Under the pieces are notes generated by a model. The model was given only the letters and a program-made list of their open reading frames with translations, ran no database searches and was not told the DNA's origin. Below, in pieces: positions 16,281-50,532 of a stretch of 64,000 nucleotides of DNA. A program made the position numbers and the translations under genes. Position 1 is the first letter of the stretch. The number at the start of each line of letters is the position of its first letter. The stretch comes from Botryllus schlosseri (lineage: Eukaryota): contig CM119372.1 of NCBI GenBank assembly GCA_051294905.1, forward strand, positions 34,908,001 through 34,972,000, given 5' to 3'.

Positions 16281-19125
16281 CAGTGGTCAGCCTCCAGGAT
16301 TGCCGAACCACGACCTAACAACGTCGACGGCCGCGTAGCAGTAGGCTTATATCAGCTGAAGCGTTTTGTAGCTCTGTATACAATAGTTGTATCGCATATT
16401 GGTGTGATATAAAACAGTCAAGTTATGTCAGGTAGTGGCGGGGCGCAGAAGCGGTCCGCAGATTCAGAACTTCCTGGGCCTTCCTCGAAGGAGGTAGCGA
16501 CGGGGAATTCTACAAGATTTGGTATTGATGAGTCAGTGATTGTAAAAGGTGTAAAAAAGCGCACTCGGCAATACAATCCGCTGACTATAAATAAATCGTT
16601 TTACGCAGTTCTTGGCGGTAATTACAAGGATGTGAAAGTTCTTCCCTTAGGAAATATCTGTGTAAAATGTGCGAATAGTGACCAAGTTTCGAAGTTACCG
16701 TCATGCACCGATCTCAGATCGAGCACAAATCCGATAGAGGTGCGAACGGAATTATACAATACCAGACCAGTAGAAGTGAAAGGAGTTATTACAAACGTGC
16801 CACTAGAAATGTCGGATGAGGAGATATTGCATTCGTTGACAAACCAACATGTTACGTTCGCGAGTAGATTCTCCTATCGCGCTGATGGAGAAACTATACC
16901 CGGTAAATCAGTGCTTTTTTGCTTCGCGTCGAGAATCTTGCCAGCCGTGGTTAAGATAGGATTCCTACGATTTAGGCCTCGCCTATACAATCAACCGCCC
17001 ACTATAGGTGCTATAATTGCAATCGCTTCGGTCATAAATCGAAGCATTGTCGAAGCGCGCAGCGTTGCTCTAAATGCGGAAACCGCCACACCCATGACAA
17101 GGTTGACAGTAGTGTTTTCCACTGCGTTAATTGCGGCAATTCTCACTCTGCTCCATACACTGGTTTCCCAAGGTATCAACAGGAAATTAGGATTCCGAAA
17201 ATAATGGCGAACACCAAGGCAGGCTATTGGACTGCGCGGAATACGTTGCAAAACGAAGCTAGTGATCCGGTAGTGCCACCTCTCAGTGAATTCCCACCTT
17301 TGCCGAAACCGAACGCTACCTCGTATAGAATTGCGGACATTTCTCCAGAAGTGTCGAATAAAAACGCCCTACCAGATGAAAACCAGTATCGCCAGAGAGT
17401 ATCTCAGCAACAAGGCTCAAGAGTGCAGAAGACAGGGGATCATATCACTATCCCAATTTCCGGTTTTTTTTTAAATTTCATTGCCGAAGTCATGAAAAAC
17501 ACGCTAACAAGCTTTATAGAAAAAAAACGAATCGACATTGAAGCAATCATAGAAAAATCAGCTGGGGGAAATCTTGGTATCTCGGTGACAAATAATCACG
17601 CATTCAATCAGAGTAACGGCAACCAAGTTAACCAACTCAATGCCATGATGACCACTCCTGAAGTCAATATTGGAGGTGCGATCGATCTGACCTTTAGTGG
17701 AGGAAGCAATATGGATAATTCAGAGTGTATGGAATCGCATAACAGTCAACAAACGAGCGAGCCAACAATCGAGAATACCACGAATATGACTGCGGGTGGG
17801 GGTCCACTCCTCGCGAAAGACGTACAAGAGGTCATGAAAAAGTCGGGTAGGGACAAAGGACGTTCTTCACAATAATGCAATGGAGTTGCCGCGGCATATA
17901 TAGAAAGATCAATGAGCTGAAACATTTTTTAGAAGAATTAGCGGAAGAGCCGCAGATAATAGCATTACAAGAGTCACACTTGGTGTCCCGTTACAAGCCG
18001 AAAATCCGGGGATATAAGCTCATTCGAAAAGACCGAGACATATATGGGGGTGGGGTCTGCTTATTTATCAAAGAAAGGGTACAATACGAGGAAATTGAAC
18101 TGACCGGATTGGACCCGATAGAAGCACAGCTTATCCAGGTTGAAGGGGTCAACATCATGAACATTTACGCTCCACCAAATCGATCACTTTCTAAAGCCAC
18201 TCTAGAAGCATGCATGAACTCTCTGTCTTCGAAAGCAATTATTGTAGGCGATTTTAATCCGCATCATCCATTATGGGGTAGCAGCAGCACAAACAGATAC
18301 GGGCGGAACCTTTACGAAGTGATCGACAGCAATGATTTTGTGATTACCAACGTCACGGCAGGCACTCGCATCAACATCGCGTCTTATTTTGGTGCCACAT
18401 CTCTGTTAGACTTATGCATTGTATCAAAGGATATCGCACTCAAAATAGAAACCACGGTCACAGACCACTTACTAGGAAGCGATCACTTTGTCATATTCAA
18501 CGCGATCAATATCCCAATCGCTATACCAGAAAATTACTTTCGCTCATGGTCATTCAGCAAAGCGGATTGTGACAGGTATAGGCGAATTGGTGGACACAAA
18601 TTGATGTCAGGACTTCAAAGGGGTGATAATACTATTGAATATGCGGTCCAGGCAATCATACAAGCGGCACGAGCATGCATTCCTGTATCAAAACCCCACA
18701 GTAAGAGTTGTGTTCCTTGGTGGAACGAATCCTGCCCCAGAGCAGTTCGTCGCAAATGAGCGGCGTTTCTGAAAATGGAACTATCCCTTCATATTGATTC
18801 ACTGATCGCGTTCAAGAAGCAGCGTGAAGAAACAAGAAACACAATTCAAGCTGCCAAAAAATCTCACTGGGAAGATTTCTGCTTATCACTGAATAGCAAT
18901 TCTAAATTAACAAAGGTTTGGCGAACAGTACGATCAATGATGGGGGCCCGCACATGGAACGTCATAAATAGCATCAAGTCCCAAGGCATTAATTTAACAG
19001 ACAACGCCGATAAAGCAAACGCGCTTGCTGGACAATTTGCGTCGGTAAGTAGCGACCAAAATCTAGATTTGCAGTTCAGGGTCAGACGACAAGAGTTCAA
19101 AAACGAATACATTGTGCCAATTATC
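16281..19125 (+). mobile_element. I-group (I/Nimb-like) LINE, 5' half only (no RT)
   Basis: Inr-like TCAGT at 16280, then gag-like ORF1 and APE ORF2; homology ends before the RT domain. Confidence 0.9.
16425..17875 (+). pseudogene. LINE ORF1 (gag-like nucleic-acid-binding protein), frameshifted
   Basis: KGVITNVPLEMSDEEI...LPAVVKIGFLRF; after a frameshift near 17000, three zinc knuckles RCYNCNRFGHKSKHC / RCSKCGNRH / HCVNCGNSH; continues in ORF 17204-17875. Confidence 0.9.
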
Positions 19126-19131
19126 CAGTGA
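17875..19131 (+). pseudogene. LINE ORF2 N-terminus: apurinic-like endonuclease plus linker; in-frame stop at 18757-18759; truncated
   Basis: APE motifs QWSCRG, IIALQE, NIYAPP, GDFNPHHPLWG, LDLC, SDH, then PWWNE and KVWR. Confidence 0.95.
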
Positions 19132-21413: not shown

Positions 21414-24400
21414 GCGACCGACGAACGAAATAACGTAGGGCGAAAGTAAGGGACGTTAGTAAGTCAAGGGACTAACATCAGAAGACGAGTAAGATTTGCA
21501 ATCAATTTTGCGTCAAAGTAAATAACCACTCATGGTGGTTCTCAGACGCTTTATATAGCGGTAAGAACAGCCCATCTGAAAAGGCTTGATTACAAATGAT
21601 GACTGAAATCAAGATAAATAAATGGAAGGCGTCATCCAAAACAGACGTGAACAATGACCATGTCAGATGAGTTTCTTGCGTGAGTGAGTGGTTGATACTC
21701 TTCGGCAAAAAAACGAAAAACTATTCCATGCTGTGTTAGTGATATTGCGGCACTTACTGTGCACGTAGCAGTTAGCACTGACGAAATTCAATTACAGGTT
21801 CATTTCATTGTTGTATGAGTTGCTGTTAATTGTGGCAGTAGAATTAGCAGTAGAAAGTTGATTACAATTATTGCAGTAATTATGCGATGCATGCAAGATA
21901 TTCGCCAGAACAAGTGTAATGGTCAACTGCTGCGTACAATGTATATTTCAGATTCTGATATCCTTCTTGACATCGATATTTCCTGTTCTTGTTACCAATG
22001 CTCGCGCAGTTCAAAGTGTTGCCACACATTATTCAACTCATGTTCATTGTGAATTTGATTCTGTTATATTACAAGATGTATTCATACTGACAGCTCGATG
22101 GCCTTGTCTCTCATTTCTACGATGATCCCATATAACTGTTTCAGCGCTACTCTGTAGATTATATCACAATGGTTTCAGCGGTTATGGCTGTAGCAATACG
22201 AACCAGGTCTCGCAATTGCTGCGGATATGAATAAATTAACCTAGGTCCTGGAATTACTGTACGTATATCGTAGGCCTATGTTGGTATCAGCAATAATCTC
22301 AGAATCTGAATTAATATGTATGGTTTCTGCGGTATTAATTGAATGCTACGCGGAATCCGCCAGATACGACCACGTCACCATATCTTATTAACTTATTATA
22401 AAAGTCGAGTCACATTACTTGCCAATGTTTGGTGCCGCAATGCCACTATACAGCACAAGTACCCTATTCATGCGTATTTTTGCTGAAAAGAGTACCAATC
22501 AATTACGGAGCAGACTCATCTAACATAGCCTAGTCTGAAATTACTTTCACCAAATACATTTTTTTGCGTTTGCCACCCGTAATCATATATTTAAAATGAC
22601 ATCCAACAAATCATGTTCGCAGCAGACAAATCGTGAGCGAAAATGGATACTAAAACAAATAGCTATACGCGATTGTATATTTTATATATTTCACCACGCC
22701 TATGGTAGAGATGAGTGGCATTGTTCACGAAATTCCAGCTCAGGTCGGACGAATTACTGTTTATGGATAATTCAACTTTTCTATGGATGAATAAAAGACG
22801 CCGATGAACAAATTCTGATACGGAATCCTGCGCGTCCAAATCGGAAAATTCGAATGAGGCGGCGATCGACGCGGGGACCCTTGGTTACATAAACGCTAAA
22901 CTGTAAAATACAGGATTGTCGCATCACTACATTGTTTGATATCGCACATGACTCACGTTGCTCCGTTTGTTCAAATTGCAACACAGAGAGGAATATTCAG
23001 TGTTTGCTGTCTAGTTAGGTTCTTTTTTATTTTACTTCGCAAAAACTGTCCAATTAAATTACGAAATCTGGCTAATTAGTTGTTTCAGTAAAAGTGGGGG
23101 GATACGGTGTTAATTTTGTATTTATATAGGTGGGCTGTGGCTCTTTTTGGTAGCACGGTATTGCGGTCAAACTCGCCGGATCTGACTCGTTAACTCCACC
23201 AGATGTATAGTATTTTCTTTTACAGGCATCCGGTTTTATATGCTGTTAAATTTACAGTTCTTCAATATTAAACAAGAATTGAAAACTATTGGAACTTACT
23301 GCCGAGTCGCACATAGTAAGTCGCTTATTGGTGATTCGATTATAACATTATGATGTATCCCATACGTAGTGGTCTGTAACACTTAATGCTAATGCGATAG
23401 AGTAGTGCTCTTCAACCATGTTCGTGTTGGTACACCCTTTTAACGTTTAGTCATAACTCCACCCCTGGCAACATAATACACCAATTCCGTATAGTAAGCC
23501 TTATCCAGGGGTGTTCCACCTTTTTGCTATTCACGACGCATTTCGAAGAAATGTATAGCATACGGCTGCATTCCAGCTTACAGTCGTTATGACCTATCTG
23601 GACGACAGATAACCTACTCATGTTAAATTGGCTACCAGGAATTTCGCACCCCGGATAGACCTTGTGGTGTTCCGAGTCATCGCTGTTTTTCTTAAATATA
23701 CCTTGCGTATAAAAGTTTCTAACTGTATAAGCAGAACACCCCCACAGGATTACTATATATCAGTGGCTCTCAACCTTTTTGTCTTTGTGGACCCCTTTGA
23801 GTCATGACGGATTACCTCCTCCCTCCCCCCCACACACACTATGGTATAGTTCAAATATAGCTCAATTATCGTATTGTGAAAATATTAACTGCAAACTGGT
23901 GATTAACAGCAACCCAATGACTTTTCTTGAAAATACTTGTTATGCAGCACTTGGAAAAACTTTTCATATTTCAAAGCGAATTCTTCAGCTGCATTTCTTG
24001 AAATACACGGTCTTGTGCTGAAAATTCACGCGGTCGATTTGATGTGAACGAGTGCCGACTACCCATTTCCAGAAAGAACGGTTCCAACGACATTTTTGGG
24101 TGTGATCGCAACATATATGGCACCAAAATTGAGAAACAGATTTTTATTCGTTCATCCCATTCATTTCTATACAGTAGCTTATCTTGAAGTTATTTTGGAA
24201 TAAAGATTATGTATGTCACAGGCGAAAATACATTATTGCATATAATATTTTTCCAAACTCCAACAAAACATCTCTAAACTGAAACATGTTTTTATCAGCA
24301 GGTTTTGGTAATTTGACCATTAAATTGAGTTGACACAGTAAAAAGAGCGAAACTTCTAACACTAGGCGAAACTTCCGGGGTGGCCCTATCTATAAAAACG

Positions 24401-34062: not shown

Positions 34063-37000
34063 CAGACATGGGGTAATCGTGATTAGCAATCGTAATCGAT
34101 TACGACGATTACAGCATTTTGAAGTAATCGTAATCGCAATCGATTACATTCGACAAAATTCCGAAGTAATCGTAATCGTAATCGACTACTTCCCATATCT
34201 AATCGATTTCTCTGTGAAAGAACGATTACTTTTTATTTGTACAAGGACAATGACATAAACTGAACATTCGTGAACAAGGAAAAGATGTTATTTCAGGTTC
34301 GTGACAGCACAAACGCCTGATTTTTGAACGCCACTGCTCAATATTACGTCAGAAGCAGCCTCTAGCTTTGATCGTCATTGTGTAAGAAGTATCCACAGTA
34401 AATAGATATTCGATGTACCTATATCGTCCATTAGTCTGATTGTAAGAACACCCGCCGTGCTGTATATCAGGTTATCAACGCGTTCCACACGCCACTACCT
34501 CGCAGCAGTAAAATTTATCTCCGCTCTGCCCATAGTTTAAAATTGTAACTTATGTGTTGATGTTTGGCTATGCTTATGCTTAGTTAAACGCAGTTTGACC
34601 GTTGCTGCTTGGCGGGCAGTAGGCCTATCCAGTATACGTACGTACCAGTACACCGGACAAAGATTTGAAATTTTGTACTCGCCAAATAAAACATTGCGGT
34701 TTCCACAACGAAGCACTAAAAATCAACAGCTGGTGATACATATATATCATAAGCGAGCCGTTTTGCCATTTCTCGTAACGGCAGCTATCATTGCAATATC
34801 TGTACCGGGTATTAAGTTGAAGGCAGAATTTTATGTTCGCTTCGTCATATTCTCATATGACTCTACTTGAAACGGGCGCCTATCGTAATTTCAAAATTAT
34901 TTATTCAACATTGGGACCTGCCGCCATGGCCATGGGTTTATCTATCATGTTAGCGCGGGTTGTAGCTGGTACCAGGACCAAAACAGCAATTCATCTCCCA
35001 GTCCAAACGTTGGTCTTTGGCCCCCGTAGGGCGGTAATCTCAAGTTGAAGATTGAATTTCGTCAAGAAATTTAGTAATTGCAATATATTACTATTAATTT
35101 TTAACCCTCTCTCAGCCCGCGATGGTCAGATATACCTGTAGAGTTTATTTGTTTGAGGTAATTATGGTGTTTGTCGACTACCACAGACATTTACACCATA
35201 GGCCGATTTCATGCATTTTCGATTCCGTATCTGCCGACTTGTAGCACGGCCCACTTCTAAGCTTTTTGTAAGACACCGCTTACGTGGACGAGGCGGCGAG
35301 GAGGAGCCTAGATAAACCTCCAACACTTTGGTAGGAATTCCGAAGTCTGCGTCGTTCAGACTCGAACCCGCAACCCGTTGGTGTTGCAGCCGTGTATTAT
35401 ACCACTGCGCTATCTCGCCACACAATTACCTACCTGTAGAGCTGGTTTCCACTGGTTTCTTGTTATAATTACTTTAGTGTATATTCTTAATTCGTGATCT
35501 TCGGATTGTTATATCATCAAAAGATATTGTAGTGGCTCAAACGTAGCAGACCAAAATAAAAACTTCCGTGAGACGCATAAACAAATTGTCACGTCTTTAT
35601 ATCTGACTGCATGTCTAGCAACTCAAGTTGTAAAGTACTAGGGTCAGTGGCCACATTAACTATACAATATGACTTAAAAACATTTTTATCATGGTTAAAA
35701 AGCATTCATTCAATGCGGCCGTTGAACAATCAAGTCAAATAATTCATTGGTTTGCTGGTCAGATAGCGTTGTAAAACGTGTTGTAACACAGCCTGCACTT
35801 AATTAAGTCTGGTGATGAGCAGACTTAAATTTGAGTGCCGATCCAGACGCATTTGAGTGTGAGCATACTTTTTGACGTGAGTTGAGTAACGAAATCGTTG
35901 CTGAGTAGAGAATCGCTACTCGACACCAAAGCAATTGGTCTTCACCCTAAATTATAAACTCCAGATTCCAAGCAAAGCAAGTGAAATTTTTGAATATAAT
36001 TTTTTTTGTAATAGATTGATTTTTTAATATTTTTCTTGGATTTTCCAACGTCAAGGGGATCCGCCAGTTGGCTAGCTGAGAGCCACATGCGGCTCTCGGA
36101 CCCGCGGTTGGCAATCATTGATCTAGAGAGGATTTTCAAGTTAATTAGATCTCTCGAAAATACTCTAACTTATGTTGGTTTACGAAATACTTTTTGAGTC
36201 CCCTTCGAGCTCGCTCTCCACCCTATTGGGAAATTTGGGGTGCGGCAGTTATTGCCCTGGCAAGAATGCAAATCGTTGGGCGCGATAAATTGACCTCTAT
36301 GAAAATGGGAAATGGATACATTATGACGTAACAAACAAATGACGCATCTTTTTTAATGGGAGTTTATTATCTCATTAGGCCTTTTCAGCGCAATCCATAT
36401 ATTGTCTTCCAACATAGCTTCTAAGATGCAAAATAAATGTAATCGTGGGTAATCGTGATTACTTTTCCAATCTAATCGTTATCGTAATCGGCTATACTTC
36501 CTGATTTTGCTGTAATCGTAATCGTAATCGCGTCATTCAGAAGTAATCGTAATCGCAATCGATTACATTCATGAAGTAATCACCCCATGTCTGTGACGCG
36601 ATTACGATTACGATTACGATTACAGCAAAATCAGGAAGTAGTGATTACGATCACGATTACATTGGAAAATTAATCACGATTACTTTTATTTTGCATCTTA
36701 GAAGTTATATTGGAAGACAATATATGGATTGCGCTGAAAAGGCCTACTGAGATAACAAACTTCCTTTACAAAAGATGCGTCATTTACTTGTTACCTCTTA
36801 TGGTACCCATTGCACATTTTTATGGAGGACGATTTGTTGCACCCAACGATTTGCATTCTTGTCAGGTCCAAGACTGTCGAACCCATAATTTCCCAATAAG
36901 GTGGGGAGCGAGCTCGAAGGGGACTCAAAAGTATTTCGCAAACCAACATAAATTATAGAGTATTTTCGAGATATTTAATTAACTTGAAAATTATTTCTAG

Positions 37001-38585
37001 ATAAGCTTGATTTCGAAATGCATAGTCTCCCCTCAAGAAAAAAAGCATACATAATTAATAGTAGGGTTGCATGTAAAACAAATAGTCGTTTTAAACCGTG
37101 TTTCAAACAAAGGCTTTAAACAAAACAAAACTGTTATTTTAAGTTGTAAAATCATGCCATAATTGTGTAAATACATTCCACAAAAACATATGTATGACCC
37201 TACGGACAATAAACACCCGATTTAGCCGACGTAGATCGTTATGGAGGGTAGGGGGTGTGTGTGTGCTACTAAAGAAATATCTTGGCCGAAACTTGGGGTA
37301 TGTGTCCATTGTCAATAGCCGTGCTGGGAGGGCGTGACTAATAGTCCGGTCCTTCCAATCTGAGCTCACAATGTGAATGGCACGAGGGCACCCACAGAGC
37401 ATTAAAGACCTGACAACTTGTGTGTGCTTCTTACGAAAGTATTTCTTTTAGTCTGCTACGTTTGGGATACGACAATATCTTTTGATTATATAACAGGCCG
37501 GAGGTCACGAATTAACAATATACACTAAAGTTATTATAACAGGATACCAGACGTTATAATTATGAATTACGTGCTCCCAGATTTACAGGTAAATCTAACT
37601 GTCGGAGGCAGAGAGAGTATGAAAAATGAATATCAATAATAATATAACGCCATTACCAATATTATTGACGAAATTCAGTCTTCAACAGCTTGAAAATATT
37701 ACCCTATAGGGGCCAAAGACCAACGTTTGGACTGGGAGATGAATTGCCGTTTTGGTCCTGATTCTAGCTACAACCCACGCTAACATGATATATAAGCCCA
37801 TGTCTATGGCGGCAGGTCTTAATGTTGAGTAATGAATTGTGAAATAACGAGTAGAGTCATATGAGAATATTAAGATGAAAAGAACATAAAATTCAGATAC
37901 AGATACAGATAATGCACTGCAAGCTGCCGTTACGAAAACGGTTCGGTTATGCTATATATCTGCAGCTGTTGATTTTTAATGCTTCGTTGTGGAAACCGTA
38001 ATGTTTTATTTGACGAGTACCAAATTTCAAATCTTTGTCCGGTAGGCCTATATACGTACGTACTACATAGACCTACTGCTCGCCAAGCAGCAGCGGCCAA
38101 ACTGCGTTTAACTAATCATAACCAAACATCGATACACAAGTTACCATTTTAAACTAGGCAGAGTGGTGATTGATTATCCTGCTGCGATGTACTGGCGTGT
38201 GGAACGTGTTGATAACATGATATCCAGCACGGCGGGTGCACGTAATATCTATTTACTCGGGATACTTCTTACCCAATGACTAGCAAAGCTAATAGGCTAC
38301 TTCTGAAGTAATAATGAGCAATGGCATTTGAAAATCAGACGTTTGTGCTATCAAGAACCTGGTATGATATCTCTTCCTTGTTCACGAATGTTAAGTTTAT
38401 GTCATAGTCCCTGTACAAATAAAAAGTAATCGTTTTTCACGAAGAAATCGATTAGATATGGGAAGTAGTCGATTACGATTACTTCGGAATTTTGTCGAAT
38501 GTAATCGATTGCGATTACAATTACTTATAAATGCTGTAATCGTCGTAATCGATTACGATTACTAATCGCGATTACCCCATGTCTG
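34063..38585. mobile_element. Palindromic dimer of an Ac-type hAT non-autonomous element
   Basis: Complete copy 34063-36593 plus inverted copy 36594-38585 lacking its last ~60 bp; outer TIRs CAGACATGGGGTAATCG; perfect TSD TTCACAAG; GTAATC subterminal repeats. Confidence 0.95.
35144..35421 (-). mobile_element. tRNA-derived SINE (family B), second copy
   Basis: Homologous to 32989-33255; TSD TACCTGTAGAG (35133-35143 and 35431-35441); 9 extra nt at the 5' junction. Confidence 0.9.
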
Positions 38586-39252: not shown

Positions 39253-39744
39253 AAAAACGCCACACTCACTTTTATATTCATGCGCAAAATAGCCTGTATT
39301 TCGCATAGCTATGTTGACTGAAGAGGTAGCCTATTTCTCATGCACAATATCAGACATTTCAACAGGCATTGCCTATGCCTTCTTCGGACTCAACATCATC
39401 GTGACTGCAATTCTTGCGTTATAAGGCCTTTACATAGTCCACATGCCGAAATGTATGTCTCCTTATTCTTCTTGCTGCTGTGTAGCCTATTCGGTCGTTG
39501 CAATCTTAATGACAACTACATCTTGTAAACTACAATAGCTCATCAGGAGCCAACGATTCCAGTATTGGAACTGGCTCATATCCCTGCACGTCTATTGTCC
39601 ATCCGTAATCGCTGGGGTTCGGAGACATGTTCTGTATAAGAATCCAATCCCGGGTCTGCACGTATTCGCGGAGTGAACGTTGTGCACTGTGCAGTTGCAC
39701 CCCTTGTTAGAGGTAGTGTCTCCGGTTTGAATGGCGGCCACGGC

Positions 39745-41326
39745 AAGGAACGAGTACGCGTACGACTCGCGAGGCTATCCACGTAGGTATTTTTGCCTAC
39801 GCAGACGACCTCACCTTGCTTGACCCGAATACCGCATCGGCACAGCGCCTCATCAACCAACTAGAGGCCGCCGCTGCTCTTATTGGCCTCCAGATCAATG
39901 CCAAGAAGACTGAGGTTCTGGCCATACCGGCTCTGTCGGAGAACGCGACACCAATTCAACTTGGAGAAGTCAGGCTCAAAAATGTCAAGAGTTTTATATC
40001 CCTCGGTATTGACGTCGCCACCTCTGGAAAAGCACTGAAGGCGAGGCGAGCAAAGGCCTGGGGCGCGGCAAGACGGCTACATTGCCTCTTCCACCTAAGT
40101 GCCTCACCCGAGCTCAAAAACCGCATTTTCCGTGCCACTGTCGAGCAGGTTGTTCTCTACGGAATAGAAGCACTCACGCTGACAGAAAAGCTAGCTAAGA
40201 CACTCAACGCCAACTACGATGCATTCCTCCGCTACGCACTCGGCATCCACCATCCGGAGCACGTATCCACCAATGCTCTGCGCAAACTTACAAAAACGGT
40301 CCCATGCCGTTTGCTGGCTGCTGAACGACGCTTCCGCCTAATCCAGTGGTTCCCAACCTTTTTCGTCTCGTTCCACCCTTGGCCGATATTTGAGCTAAAA
40401 TCCCCCCCCCCTCCTATGAAAAAGTTGCATGTGGCTGAAAAAATGTGCTTTTTAACGCGCAACCATTCGTTGACTGAGCAACTAATGGCCAAACATATTC
40501 AGATATGTGCGAACTATGGCGAATGTGGACCGCACTAAACTTTGGTAAAGTACAGTCAAATTTGAACTGTTTTTGACCGGTCGGGTAGCCTCTGACGAAA
40601 AATAAATCACCAAGTCCGCTTGCTATGGACTTGAGTTGAATCGATCAATTTGGTACGGTATGTTTTTCACGTTAGCTCATATGTTGGCTTAAAAAGTTAA
40701 ACAATTTCACTAGCAGCTTTGTGCTGAATTCGGCTTGACGTTTTCCTGCTTTGTAGCAATTTGGTTGAGAGGCTGTCGCAGACCTAACGAAATCGTCTCG
40801 TGAGCCTCACTTTGTCAGGGGGTGTATTATATACGGAAGGCATTTAAACATACAACTAGCTTGAAATCCGCTGAAGAAATATACAATTGTAAAGAACTAA
40901 TTTCTACTTAAAACAGTTCTATACCATAAAAATCTAAAAACCCAGTGTATCTTCCGATACAATGCCAAAGCCAGATTACCCCCTAAAAATTTCAAAATTC
41001 CCTCCAAGGGGGGAATTCTCCCCGGTTGGGAACCACTGGCCTAATCAGTCATCTTGTGCGGCATCAAGACGATCAACCAGCCGCCGCCATCATCAACCAC
41101 AATACGACGGAGCCATGGCGCAGAGGTGGCTGGAATAGAACCACATGGCGCTCGACAATAGAGACCGAGCTAGCGCAACGCGGGCTTTCGCTCGAAGATG
41201 CCCACGACCACCCACGCTGGAGGCGCTTAACAAGGGGCCAAAACGGATTATCTTGATGTTCTTTTGTTTCCTGTTTTCTTTTTCCCTTTTATTTAAATAT
41301 TTATTTGAAAGTCGATATATATATAT
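39745..41326 (+). mobile_element. 5'-truncated RTE-like LINE (RT C-terminal half)
   Basis: FAYADDLTLL at ~39790, GLQINAKKTEVL and VVLYGIEALTLT; the frame rejoins across the MITE at 40344-41038 and stops at 41256; T-rich 3' UTR with (TA)n tail. Confidence 0.85.
40344..41038. mobile_element. Buster/Charlie-type hAT MITE inside the RTE-like LINE
   Basis: TIRs CAGTGGTTCCCAACC; perfect TSD GCCTAATC. Confidence 0.95.
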
Positions 41327-43561: not shown

Positions 43562-45169
43562 GTACAAGGGTGTACCAGATCCGAATTAAAATGGACCGAT
43601 GACTATATAGCTATCACAATGAAAAGGCCATTGTATGCTTCAGAACATTAATATGTTGGCCGGGCGTGCATTATCGTAAAATATGTTCATATCAGCTGTA
43701 CGAGCTTGTAAGCTATATTCCTTTTGGTGTATCATAAGCATATGTTTGTGCACATAACTTAAATGTTGGTATGGTCTTTTTGATTCCTTTTGGAGTAAAA
43801 AAGGATGGATATGACATGTGTTCCGCTTGCAATATCCGTCTATAATGATGCTTGAGGACACCAAGGCGACGGTTCAGAAATATTGAATTTGTACTTTCAG
43901 TGAGCTCCATATAAATATCGCAGTGTACATCATTACAGGGGCGTAGCCAGGGTGTCTCGAGGGGGTCTAGTTTGAGAACCACTGTGCTAGCTGGTGGTCC
44001 GGATCCTCAAGCCCTGATTAGTGTTTAGCATTTCAAATACGTTGCAGCATTGTTCAGTCTTATTTCAACAGACCAGCACCTGCAGACATACGGTCGCATG
44101 CAGCCGTTAAACAATATTCATGCAAAACATATTAATTAAATTAGAGCGTGTTTTGGCGTCCGTTAATATGAAATTTAAATTAACGAATTGGTTCTCAAAT
44201 CTTTGAGAGATTTTAAACTTGAAAATTTTATTCACGCTTGCGCGATTCGGGGGATCCGAATTTTTCGTATTTTATATATAGTGTAATCTAAGTCCCACCA
44301 AACAAATGCAAACCGTAAAGCAAAATGATGCACCTCATAAAGAAATACAAAGATGGATTCGTATGCGTGTATGCCTACACCCCCTCCATCAGCTCCATCG
44401 CTTAATCATTCACGTGTGCCAAGAATTGATAAATAGTTGACAGTATTATATGTAACTACCCATATTATTGACGAAATAAATCTTCCACATGTAAAGGTTT
44501 TTAGCGCCCGCGCGACTACTGTTACAATTAAAAACTTCCATACGCAAGGTATACCTCAAGAAATCAGTGATGGCGCAGAACACCACAAGCGCTCTCCGCG
44601 GTGTGAAGTTGCCAGTAGCCAATTTAACATGAGTATTAGGGTTGTTCAGAATTGACCGACTTTCAAAAATTCCAGGTTTTCAGTCCGATTCCCATGCCTT
44701 ATACCTTAAAAACATATTCTGGCTACTTTTATTTGTAACTCGTCCCCTGCATCCGTGTGCACATTGAGCTGGAAGAATAGCAGCTGAAAATAGGGGATTC
44801 TCCTAAAATCTGAGTGTCACGATTTTACCTAGCCTAGTTAAAGTGACATATAGCATGGATTTATGCAGCTGTTGCGGTTTGGAGTGCTACAAAACCCCAC
44901 TATATAAGGCATTGCTAGTTCAGAATATCATTTCCATGTCCCACACTGCCTTAGAACTGCTCAAAACTACCTAAAACTGATAGTCATTTTGTTGGATCAC
45001 ATATCCTACACCCCTCAAATTACCCGGCACTGTTCATCGATTTCCTGGATCCCCATGTGCAAGAATACAACTGTAAATGTAACATCCACTCACAGCCACA
45101 TAATAAACATCACAGGAAACGAAAAAATAAGGCAAAGAAAGAGACCAACGTGGCAAAATATTACATAAA

Positions 45170-46436
45170 TCAGGTGGATGAAATGGTTGCTTTCGAGAAA
45201 TCTGCATATCTGTTCCGGTGATCTTCCACAGCTTGTAGGAGGCTCGCTCGCTGTTTTTTGTCATCCGTTATGAACGCAGCATAGTCGGTATTCAATTTTA
45301 CCATACGCTCTGCTGCATCATTAACTACTTCAACAGTATTCACAAATTCTTGAGTCGTCACGAAATCCGGATCAGTATGCCATTCCGAAACTGGAAGACT
45401 CAACCAATCATGTTCCACATGTATAGCATCAATTAGAAACCACGATTCTGGCCCAATCAAATCGACCATACGCATTGACTCAGAGACAGAGCCAGAGATC
45501 AGACTGAGAGGCATACCTCTGCGAAATTTTTCAGGGATTGGCATTTTCAGCAATTTAGCAGCCATCGCTTCCTTCAGTTTGTCAGGAATCTTCGGATTAG
45601 CCGAGAACATGGTAAATACCACCATTTCCTAAGTTAGATACCAATGTACCAATGATGCTTTCGCAATTTCTTGTATGCCACATCAGCAACAGTGAGATCG
45701 CATAATGAAAAGTTTTTCATGTCATGAAGGAATTTGAGATCATTCCAAGGTGCGTCACATGCAATACCAGTTTTCAACCAAGCTGGAACATAAAACAAAG
45801 CAATGAATGAATTGATTCGTTCCAACTTTTCAATGAACTCTTCAGAATAGTCCATTTGGCCACTCCACATGAACATTTTTTGACAGTACAGTACTTGACT
45901 CATCCATCTAGCGCTATGAGTAGCACCAGGCTTGCGAAAACGATGATCAACATATTTGTCATCCAAAATCGCCAAGGTGCCTGTTGCACATGCTCTGTAG
46001 TCATCTCTTATCAAGACTTCTTTCTGCTTTCCATCATTAGGTTTCATCAGTGGGAATTATTTCTTGCTTTGCTTCATCAGCTTTCGTCGCCAACCAGCTC
46101 CCTTCAATAAACTTCAGCGTTTCACAGCTTCTTGATTTATCAATATGTTTCCACTTCTTCTTGAAGGTATTAAAATCCGGTTTTCAGGGCCTGTGGTTGT
46201 CGATCCAAACAAACACTTCCAAATCTCTCGAATGACCAGTTCATAAATATGATGGCGACAGGCATTGTAGAAAACTTTGCTGTTATTCAATTCTTCAAGT
46301 AACGGAACCGCACCTTTGTTTTTACCAGTGTTTGAGGATGTTGTGTCAAACACAAGAGCTCTAACAGATTTTGTTAAATTCCAAAGTTCCAGCAGTTCAA
46401 ATGATGCATCAGCCTGTGCTTTTCCTGTAGCACTTT
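45170..46436 (-). pseudogene. hATm-type transposase, N-terminus missing, frameshifted
   Basis: FDTTSSNTG, ACRHHIYEL, PGATHSARWM, LRKHHWY and VVNDAAERMVKL across ORFs 46114-46353, 45634-46047 and 45170-45625. Confidence 0.9.
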
Positions 46437-46848
46437 CCGACTATGCTGCGTTCATAATGGATGACAAAAAACAGCGAGCGAGCCTCCTACAAGCTGTGGA
46501 AGATCACCGGAACAGATATGCAGATTTCTCGAAAGCAACCATTTCATCCACCTGATTTATGTAATATTTTGCCAAGTTGGTCTCTTTCTTTGCCTTATTT
46601 TTTCGTTTCCTGTGATGTTTATTATGTGGCTGTGAGTGGATGTTACATTTACAGTTGTATTCTTGCACATGGGGATCCAGGAAATCGATGAACAGTGCCG
46701 GGTAATTTGAGGGGTGTAGGATATGTGATCCAACAAAATGACTATCAGTTTTAGGTAGTTTTGAGCAGTTCTAAGGCAGTGTGGGACGTGGAAATGATAT
46801 CCTGAACTAGCAATGCCTTATATAGTGGGGTTTTGTAGCACTCCAAAC

Positions 46849-47802
46849 CAGTGTTGGGATGACTCGAGTCATGACTTGACTCGAGTCAGACTCGAGTCAA
46901 CTTTTTCGTATGACTTGACTTGACTCGAGTCACTTTGACAAAATGACTAGACTTGACTTGACTCGGCGGTTCAGAAATGTGGATTGACTCGTGACTCGGA
47001 GCAAAATTTACGAGTCAATTTCAAGTCATCAAGTAAACGGTGTAGATTAAATATTTCTGTATCTTGTTTATGTTCGAATTATTCGCCACACGCCGCTGTG
47101 ACTTGTGAGAGCAACCGGTCATTCACTGATTGTACATTTCACTGATCCACCATTGCTATATCACAAATAAATTTACCGAAAACGAACTGATGACAGGTTA
47201 CGTTTATGTACTAGCAGTAGCATATTCTAATAGCAACGTATCTCTGTTTCTTAGACGGCTCAGTGCTTATATCGCGCAGTGCCCACCTTAACCAACCCTC
47301 TTGTATGATTTAAATCGAACGAATACAGTTTATGCGTTTATATTCTCACGGATGTGTAGATGGATAGTATATTATATCATATCATTTTGTTTCAACTTCT
47401 CGACGCTTCGTATTCGATCCTCTATTTTGGCTCACGTATTTGATTAGCTGCTCTACCTCTGCGTGAGCGATACAGCGCCCTTTTGCATGTATATTTGACC
47501 TTATACTCGATATTTGATTCAAGATATATGACCAATATATCTGTCTTTTACACATCTAGCAAAATGTAATGACTTTGAATCATCATTCATACTTTGAAAA
47601 TTCAATTTGACTTGAAATGTGACTTGACTCGTGACTTGACTTGACTTGACTCGACTTGATTCGAGTCACCTCCAAAAAACGAGTGACTTGACTTGACTCG
47701 AGTCACCTTCGAAAGTCGAATGACTTGACTTGACTCGAGTCAAAATGTGCAATGACTCGAAATGACTCGTGACTCGAAGGTAGTGACTTGATCCCAACAC
47801 TG
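46849..47802. mobile_element. Ac-type hAT MITE in the right arm of the fold-back
   Basis: TIRs CAGTGTTGGGAT; perfect TSD CTCCAAAC; GACTTGA/GACTCGA subterminal repeats. Confidence 0.95.
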
Positions 47803-50532
47803 CTCCAAACCGCAACAGCAGCATAAATCCATGTTATATGTCACTTTAACTAGGCTAGGTAAAATCGTGACACTCAGATTTTGGGGGAATCCCCTATTTC
47901 AGCTGCTATTCTTCCAGCTCAATGTGCACACGGATGCAGGGGACGAGTTACAAAACAAAGTAGCCAGAATATGTTTTTAAGGTATAAGGCATGGGAATCG
48001 GACTGAAAACCTGGACTTTATGAAAGTCGGTCAATTCTGAACAACCCTAATGAGTAGGCTATATGCAGGGCCGAAACAGCACTTCGTCAGCCCCCACCTA
48101 AAAAAACCTTGGTCTTGGGCCCCCATAGCGTCATAAACCAAACAGTAGACCCCTCATCACGGTCTACGTTTTATAACCGTTACTTTGTTAACGAAATTTG
48201 TTATACACGTTGGTGGGCTAGTTTATAGCGTAAGATCGCGCGAGGCGTGGAATTTTCTCTAATTCGTGATTGAATCCGTCAATAATATCAGAAATTACAT
48301 ACATATTGTTATAAATTTTGTTATTCTCTCTCTCTGCCCAGGTAATCAGATTTACTTTAAGATTTACAATCAAAATGAAATGTGTTGGAAAATGTATGGC
48401 CCGTAAATAAAAATAATTCGGGCGGGCCTCTTGATCTCCTCGGGGTTTTCAGTCAGCACAAGGGTAGTCCTTTTTGACCAATGTTTTCTCGCTGCCAATC
48501 ATTCTGGCACACTTCTAGGATCGCATTTTGTTACATGGCCTAAAACTTCATATGTCTTGGAGCGTCGTGGCGCGGTAATGGTCGACACCGAAATGCCTAT
48601 TGCTATTAATCTTGCATATTTTTCTTGGGGAAGGTTACCCAATAATCAAGAAATTTGACATTAAATCGAGCGTAGGGCGAAAGAAATTGAATGAAGTTGA
48701 ACAAATTTTTGAAAATATACTCAATAATTTGGGACCCCTTCGAACTCCCCCCTCCCCCCCAATCGACGGGTTTGGGGTGCGGCAGTTAGGGTCCTGATTA
48801 TATGCGCCGGAATGCGGTAGTATGCTATGTAAGGAATCGAAGCACGGCCGTGAATAACAAAGAGGTTTAACACCCCTGGTCTAGGCTTACTATACGCAAT
48901 CAATGAGTTATCCGGTTATGGGTGTAACAGTTTCAAGTAAACCTTAAAAGGGTGTACCACGACGAAAAAGGTTGAAGAGCACTGGGCTACGCCCCACAGA
49001 GAGCAGGTTTTCTTCCTCGTTTTACGAATCGATTGAACGTTTCTTCAAACCTTCGCCCAATTACTCGCACTCTGGGTCACAGTGTCTGGCTTTCATTTCC
49101 CCATCAGCCACCTTTTCCACGAATGACTTTATGTCACCACGCTTATCCTCAGTTAAGGCAATTTCCTTGGTATGTTGATCGATGCATCGATGAGGAGGTG
49201 AGCACAGATTGCCTTGTCGAAAAACCATCCATGATGTGGCTGGTTGGTGTGCTTCCAGCATGGATTAACTGGATCACATCTAGTAGCCGTGAATATTCCA
49301 TATTGTTACCAATTGATCCAAGATATTATTTCAATAGGTGAAAACCACCCAACCTTGGAATGACTGGCAAATTTGTCTTCTTCATTATATATATACCCTT
49401 CAGTAGAATCGGAAGACCGACGGTCACTATAGCGACCATATAATGCTGTGTTCACTTTTTAAGCGTGGTGAAGAAGGTTTGAGTTCATCAGGGTCTCCTT
49501 CAATAACTGGAATGAACTCGATATGTGTGCGTTCTTATGCATCATTAGCATTGCTTCTCTTCATCCAGCCATTCCAGTTGGAATATTAAAAGTCAAGAGC
49601 GTAGGCTTTGTTGACCCAAACTGCTGTTCATAGTGTGTTACCTGAAGAGATCAGAGGCTGATCCAAGCTGATCCATGAGCCAAGGATCGGAAATTATGGT
49701 GAAACAGCGACGATCCATTCAGTAACAATCGACAATGAACTCACACATAGCCGTGCTGGGTTCATAGTCGCTTTCGTACTTCGTTACAATTGCGTCTATC
49801 TTACAAAACGGATTGATACAGAAATACCGTTTTACCTCTTTCTGCATTGCTTAGTACTGTAATTGAGGAATTACTATAATGGTTTTAAGCCTATATATGT
49901 GTGTTTTACCCAGTATTACAGTATGCAGAATTTGTTGAATCGCTCGGTATCGAATTATGAATGGTGCAGCCCTACTTGTGACGGTACAGTTATGCCATCA
50001 GTGCCATTACTTTTACATATATTTCCACAAAACAGTTTGTAGTAAAATGTATATTTTAACAATCAATTGAGAATGATGGAAAAACCATTATTAAACCCAT
50101 CCTAAGTTACTTACAGCCGATAAAGATTTTTTTTAATATTTTTAATTTATATTACTTTTTAAAATTTGTCAAATTTCACAGCTTTTTTTCATAGTTTTCC
50201 ACAAGAGTTGAACTTCAACATTTTAACACATGTTATAAGAGACCTTGAAAGACATATTGGTGAAGAAATTGTTTGGTAACAATAAGTTCACAGATTTGTG
50301 AAATATTTCATAAAATACCCTTACTATACGTAATAAGTCCAATATACCGTTCTTTAAACGGACCAGGGCTGCGAAAACTTAGGCATGGTGACGATTCTGT
50401 CAAGACATATCTAAATTTATATATAGAGAGATGTAAGTGGTGTTATGGCTTTCTACACTGCGCAGTCTGCATTCAAATTATCGTATATTGATGCATAGTT
50501 CTGTCGTGTCGCTGTTATTTTACTCTCTAGAA

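Follow-up and report, generated by a model that had tools for sequence, protein, structure and literature searches.

Within a 64,000-nucleotide stretch of the Botryllus schlosseri genome (assembly GCA_051294905.1, contig CM119372.1, positions 34,908,001 to 34,972,000, forward strand; hereafter the window), a 3413-bp fold-back unit occupies positions 44637–48049. It is bounded by the termini TAGGGTTGTTCAGAATT...AATTCTGAACAACCCTA and measures 2.45 kb without the miniature inverted-repeat transposable element (MITE) nested in it. Our analysis confirmed that the feature is real and is an hATm transposon with two 3′ ends. Its 5′ half, comprising the promoter end, the N-terminal ~360 codons of the transposase and the first catalytic Asp, is missing, and the last 652 bp are repeated there in inverted orientation; the unit has an intact 8-bp target site duplication (TSD). 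The features are listed below; TIR denotes a terminal inverted repeat, UTR an untranslated region, P0001 a 777-aa transposase homologue, L002 a related locus and X10 a public contig set.

44629–44636, no strand: left TSD ATGAGTAT, whose last base differs from the ancestral G
44637–45288, minus strand: left arm (652 bp), the native 3′ end of hATm with the terminus TAGGGTTG..., the 3′ UTR and the last 39 codons; matches family contigs and RNA
44637–44780, no strand: probable natural family TIR, approximate, its inner edge between ~44750 and ~44850, estimated from X10 depths and the ~143-bp TIR of L002
45170–46438, minus strand: broken 3′ half of the transposase, identified by homology to P0001 (residues ~360–771, 51–55% identity)
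45289–46436, minus strand: single-copy loop between the arms, 1148 bp
46437–46438, no strand: junction with the 2-bp microhomology CC, where family records have loose ends (at 46438)
46437–46848, plus strand: inner part of the right arm, an inverted copy of 44877–45288 with four differences from the left arm and four derived changes in common with it
46849–47802, no strand: MITE of 954 bp with the TIR CAGTGTTGGGAT, GACTTGACTCGAGTC subterminal repeats and the 8-bp TSD CTCCAAAC (46841–48 and 47803–10)
47803–48049, plus strand: outer part of the right arm, an inverted copy of 44637–44884 with nine differences from the left arm and no shared derived changes
48050–48057, no strand: right TSD ATGAGTAG

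The left 652 bp of the unit recur in inverted orientation within 46437–48049, split there by the MITE, which the left arm lacks. A sequence-only reading of this DNA had proposed that the transposase was cut at 46436 and its 5′ end swapped for the inverted last 652 bp. The arms and the stop of transposase homology at 46437, corresponding to residue 360 of P0001, confirm this, with the breakpoint refined to 46437–46438. Two 3′ ends carrying C-terminal codons had also been described, and DYAAF...KATISST* can indeed be read in both arms. The transposase remnant contains frameshifts near 46179, 46052 and ~45640; it lacks the first catalytic Asp (HWDGK) and retains the FDTT, CRHH and NDAAER motifs.

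We assigned the element to hATm because its terminus, TSD and protein agree with the published definition of this group (PMC6004678). The terminus TAGGGTTG matches TAGGGTG...CACCCTA at six of the first seven letters, and published hATm termini also vary (PMC6004678). Of the 80 related loci, 49 with longer flanks were selected visually and scanned; paired TAG(G/A)G termini were found at 34, six of which had a perfect 8-bp TSD; relatives with flanking DNA were mostly 2.8–3.8 kb long. Two relatives (L077 3797–5626 and L080 622–2773) are shortened internally to 1.8 and 2.2 kb and keep both termini, with a perfect 8-bp TSD in L077. The viral contig L081, found by alignment search and not by the P0001 query alone, carries the published hATm-6_CcBV terminus at both ends (20/20), and its transposase matched all three open reading frame (ORF) pieces of the window element (28–41% identity, E 3e-12 to 5e-25). 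A second hATm-type terminus, TAGGGTGG, lies at position 1828 of L081, 540 bp upstream of the main element.

At the protein level, an AlphaFold model of P0001 (66 relatives; predicted local distance difference test score, pLDDT, 89.8) matched Hermes structures in every one of the ten best PDB hits (best E 8e-8). This fold search revealed a Hermes-like DDE fold with a helical insertion domain in the homologue; residues D323, D390, C419/H422 and E728 are conserved. Neither a PDB sequence search nor a protein atlas (eukaryote clusters) gave the transposase a name; the fold search alone did. No Pfam hAT match, including the dimerisation domain PF05699, was obtained for the three window pieces and five homologues at E values up to 1, the hATm family being too divergent for the Pfam model. 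The hATm assignment already made in the sequence-only reading is thus borne out by the terminus, the TSD and the homology to the L081 transposase.

The two flanking copies, ATGAGTAT and ATGAGTAG, agree at 7/8 positions, whereas random 8-mer pairs of the window match at 7/8 or better with a frequency of 0.0006. We regard them as a true TSD because the element interrupts an old repeat, and a paralogue of this repeat near window position 23615 shows ATGAGTAG only once at the corresponding site before continuing like the right flank. Both the 7/8 match and the empty paralogous site thus uphold the duplication noted earlier, and an 8- or 9-bp TSD is what hATm insertions generate. The G-to-T change in the left copy lengthens the stem by 2 bp, which is compatible with chance. 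Immediately to the right of the TSD, another insertion, starting with CAGGGCCGAAAC, occupies ~48066–48800 inside the same old host repeat and is absent from the paralogue near 23400–23730.

The structure of normal family copies was read from public data. Four runs were mapped onto 44300–46500, three of which contained the family: the contig sets X1 and X10 and the RNA reads of X24; the fourth, X21, gave 0 reads. Contig depth is not a measure of copy number, and contig structure was weighted above depths. Family records leave the window sequence at 46438 in all three runs (11 X1 contigs, two X10 contigs and 25 X24 RNA reads), and past this position the loose-end consensus reads EGKLLGIQTL in 3/3 runs, where P0001 has SGKLLGIQRL. 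Because normal copies still match up to 46438, the junction is a 2-bp microhomology. A single X10 contig (44750–45404, depth 77.5), the sole contig over 44853–45150, passes the inner edge of the arm at 45288 unbranched, and neither X1 nor X10 showed a depth step at 45288. In X10, depth was 158 at 44731, 119 at 44801 and 77.5 at 44853, and 0 at 46446–46500. These values suggest a natural family TIR of less than ~200 bp, probably near 140 bp; in L002, the closest relative with both termini, the TIR measures ~143 bp. Among 80 related loci, many of them truncated by contig ends, none had coding sequence overlapped by an inverted repeat of high identity. The symmetry of the window element is derived, since normal copies run into the 5′ coding region and the inverted ends in X10 span less than ~200 bp. 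Autonomous copies had been expected to have a different left end, and family records do continue into normal upstream coding sequence at 46438. At the terminus 44636/44637 (44596–44817), X10 depth was far greater and the loose flanks were numerous and diverse, a pattern suggestive of short non-autonomous derivatives and of hATm family insertions at several sites.

Substitutions in the arms preserve a record of their history. For this comparison, the right arm was taken as 46437–46848 plus 47811–48049, omitting the MITE along with one of its two TSD copies. Relative to the family letters, the outer left arm, inner left arm and loop carry 4/239, 6/413 and 20/1148 substitutions, a uniform 1.5–1.7%. 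The list of differences is complete over 44750–45404, 45465–45880 and 46006–46315, because the differences listed there equal the X10 contig counts (10, 8 and 8). Between the arms there are 13 differences, nine in the outer 239 bp and four in the inner 413 bp (raw divergence, outer versus inner, p=0.019). All nine outer changes are private (four left and five right, two of the latter assigned by their absence from the differences listed) and none is shared; in the inner arms, four derived changes absent from the family majority are present in both arms (44914, 45019/20, 45039 and 45145) and four are private. Shared versus private changes thus number 0/9 outside and 4/4 inside (Fisher p=0.029). 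In our preferred reading of this pattern, the outer arms began to evolve separately at roughly the time the element inserted. The shared changes suggest that the inner 413 bp were overwritten, or generated for the first time, by later arm-to-arm copying that ended at the MITE; a single copy cannot separate an old junction with late conversion from a short early replacement with late extension. The MITE had been described as confined to one arm and younger than the duplication. Its confinement to one arm held, and it is younger than at least the outer part; for the inner part, the claimed order may not hold.

Taken together, we consider it likely that the unit is a dead, non-autonomous, end-replaced derivative of an hATm family that is otherwise normal and transcribed, most probably decaying neutrally as a single or rare allele without a silencing role. 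Its formation may have begun when DNA synthesis, in the course of replication or the repair of a gap, came in from the 5′ end and switched to the 3′ end via the shared natural TIR of ~140 bp. Copying would then have proceeded inward before the gene was rejoined at 46438. The outer part, at least, would date from roughly when the element inserted, having formed in situ or shortly before transposase from another copy mobilized the element. After the MITE had inserted, a second round of arm-to-arm copying of the inner 413 bp, ending at the MITE, would account for the inner arms, a step with moderate support. Alternatively, a deletion could have joined two inverted copies lying side by side, the route put forward for Rpmar49 (PMC4678618). 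In X1, the private letters of the window have zero depth at 45145, 45658, 46125 and 46286, suggesting that the fold-back allele is absent or rare in the sampled material, although contigs can drop rare variants.

Several points weigh against this account. Among the public runs mapped onto 44300–46500, no single read or contig crossed the whole structure. The two-step history rests on 17 mutations and has moderate support: the boundary between outer and inner parts at the MITE was noticed from the data themselves, polarity at 44666 and 44730 was deduced from absence among the differences listed, and chance heterogeneity may be the source of the contrast. On the evidence of a single copy, template switching and deletion between two inverted copies are indistinguishable. 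Single-copy status and silence are unproven, as no carrier data set was identified and contigs drop rare variants; the X1 bin beyond the junction has a depth that ambiguous contigs can explain or hide.

Alternatively, the two-3′-end element may have formed once elsewhere and been moved by transposase in trans, giving a mobile non-autonomous subfamily with several copies, like Rpmar49. We consider this rather unlikely. In its favour, neither terminus nor the TSD is damaged, independent divergence of the outer arms goes back as far as the age of the copy, and the family ends are probably already symmetric over ~140 bp; Rpmar49 itself provides a precedent with 13 independent copies (PMC4678618). 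Against such mobility, X10 gave no junction signal and neither X1 nor X10 an excess of arm over loop, though depth measures this poorly. Metagenome contigs, in which an animal locus is hardly to be expected, contained 0 matches to the junction pattern, and in the hAT element Hermes paired right ends (RE/RE) are inactive and paired left ends (LE/LE) have little activity (bioRxiv 2022.09.16.508221).

More doubtful is a role of the unit as a hairpin silencer of its own family, that is, a killer allele. It is improbable that transcription reads through from a flanking promoter and ends at the family poly(A) region in the sense-read arm, and no less so that a resulting ~200-bp stem matching the transposase mRNA is diced to small interfering RNAs (siRNAs) that silence the family in trans. 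The arm does hold an inverted duplication that includes transcribed transposon sequence, namely 119 bp of coding sequence and about 100 nt of 3′ UTR. Since family RNA depth in X24 drops at about 45040–45110, ~200 nt of the arm overlap the mRNA. Of the 194 21-nt windows in 45075–45288, 152 pair perfectly, with a duplex energy of about -400 kcal/mol, and the stem forms in the computed fold of the strand despite the 1148-nt loop. Moreover, the part matching the mRNA lies in the inner arms, and these resemble each other more closely than the outer ones do; Mu killer (PMC3440606) and Ac killer (bioRxiv 2020.01.07.897926) provide precedents. No poly(A)-type hexamer from a set list was present on the minus strand at 44950–45172.

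Against a silencing role, the element has lost its own promoter end, and no host-gene Pfam domain was detected in 146 window ORFs of at least 72 aa, a scan that short exons or a large intron could escape. These were 146 of the 152 listed ORFs; the six omitted lie in the element (three scanned separately, three right-arm frames). The RNA data point the same way: X24 reads carry the family letter only at 26/30 diagnostic sites (65/65 at 45145), and X24 may be without this copy. Two of the four exceptional sites adjoin a site that is 100% family. In total, 849 of 12.9 million X24 reads mapped onto 44300–46500, both directions alike, so that the library looks unstranded; 92% of them run on into unlike sequence, such as adapters. 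No A>G excess was seen among these reads (A>G 19, T>C 21, C>T 23). No diagnostic read of the fold-back copy was found in X24 while the family was expressed, in a sample that may lack the copy; this result neither supports nor refutes silencing in carriers. Separately, two X24 records join 45173 to 45647, skipping 45174–45646 with five other letters between, possibly from an internally deleted family copy or a library chimera.

A fuller form of this idea is a natural animal killer allele, whose ~200-bp read-through stem, directed against the 3′ end of the transposase mRNA, is kept near-perfect by MITE-bounded arm-to-arm copying, and whose carriers silence a family expressed in non-carriers; we rate it as quite improbable. 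Were it true, a still-transcribed animal family would have its equivalent of Mu killer and Ac killer, and the start of transposon silencing could be tested in carriers versus non-carriers. Because the allele looks polymorphic, this could be tested directly on animals that naturally carry or lack it.

It is very improbable that autonomous copies already had an inverted repeat of at least 650 bp, from which the unit arose by simple internal deletion. Long repeats do occur in the group: TIRs of 417 and 575 bp are known from hATm-6 (PMC6004678), and those of L081 and L076 measure ~440 and 313 bp. However, the L081 and L076 repeats end short of the coding region, the unbranched X10 contig runs through 45288, and the four changes common to both arms are absent from the family. 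A natural long TIR is largely refuted by public-run contigs that continue normally at 46438 and through 45288. An assembly artefact, such as an inverted chimeric read or a collapsed repeat, is hardly credible: although the whole structure is not covered by any mapped record and X1 and X10 show few or none of the letters private to the window, an inverted chimera is unlikely because 13 sites differ between the arms, with private changes in each, and only one arm has a MITE, with its own TSD, while the outer TSD agrees with the empty paralogous site.

Other elements were noted in the window. At 34063–38585 lies an old 4.5-kb palindromic element with an 8-bp TSD, TTCACAAG, and the termini CAGACATGGG...CCCATGTCTG. 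Its arms (34063–35140/37584–38585, 35452–35599/37403–37550 and 36121–37002) are about 80% alike to the centre; the left arm holds a tRNA-like short interspersed nuclear element (SINE), and the palindrome gave no Pfam match. Long interspersed nuclear element (LINE) remnants at 16413–19128 and 39717–40538 comprise a frame that resembles ORF1 and has CCHC motifs, endonuclease sequence (PF14529, PF03372) and, apart from these, a fragment of reverse transcriptase (PF00078). In the 146 scanned ORFs, the Pfam matches were to LINE endonuclease and reverse transcriptase only.

We compared the dead, end-replaced derivative with known systems. Like the published hATm elements (Zhang et al. 2018, PMC6004678), it has a TAGGGT terminus, an 8-bp TSD and a transposase homologous to that of the bearer of the hATm-6_CcBV terminus; unlike them, it has the terminus TAGGGTTG instead of TAGGGTG and is defective and rearranged.

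Among inverted duplications with silencing activity, maize Mu killer is likewise a deleted element with one end doubled and its transposase sequence in inverted duplication (PMC3440606). Mu killer, however, whose silencing is proven, has transcribed genes on either side and doubles the promoter end (5′, TIRA) together with ~1.3 kb of mudrA (PMC3440606), whereas here the 3′ end is doubled, the stem contains 119 bp of coding sequence only and no transcript was seen in X24. The sequence-only reading had invoked Mu killer as a read-through hairpin that silences its family; the inverted duplication and the silencing are as stated, but PMC3440606 associates silencing with antisense transcripts that begin within the element and not with read-through. 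The Ac killer composite insertions of maize resemble the present unit as an inverted duplication of the hAT superfamily able to give double-stranded RNA. They differ in having arisen by alternative transposition with re-replicated flanking DNA, in their demonstrated siRNAs and heritable silencing, and in their plant host (bioRxiv 2020.01.07.897926). The likeness to both killers is one of shape only; in those loci the duplicated sequence is transcribed or promoter-side and adjoins active promoters, and small RNAs or silencing have been demonstrated.

Closer counterparts are the mariner lineages Rpmar49 and Rpmar17 of Rhodnius prolixus, in which the 5′ part was replaced by the inverted 3′ part, with abortive gap repair as the proposed cause (Filee et al. 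2015, PMC4678618). As in the Rpmar49 type, one end of the window element is an inverted copy of the other and is absent from normal family copies, and in both cases the resulting long TIRs contain transposase sequence (PMC4678618). The Rhodnius lineages are Tc1/mariner elements of about 0.9–1 kb with at least 13 independent copies (PMC4678618); here the element is an hATm whose arm measures 652 bp and of which a single copy is in evidence. In Drosophila, seven MITE sublineages of the mariners Dromar7, 11, 28 and 36 also have one end replaced and unusually long TIRs, but as the mirror image, with the 3′ end replaced by the 5′ end, in another superfamily and after amplification (PMC4161770). No case of hATm end replacement was found in the literature searched, most subscription papers being outside its reach. 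This type of rearrangement is already known from mariner (PMC4678618), and a killer of the hAT superfamily is already known in maize as Ac killer. The window element extends end replacement from mariner to hATm and may offer a modest record, open to dating, of arm-to-arm copying that took place twice.

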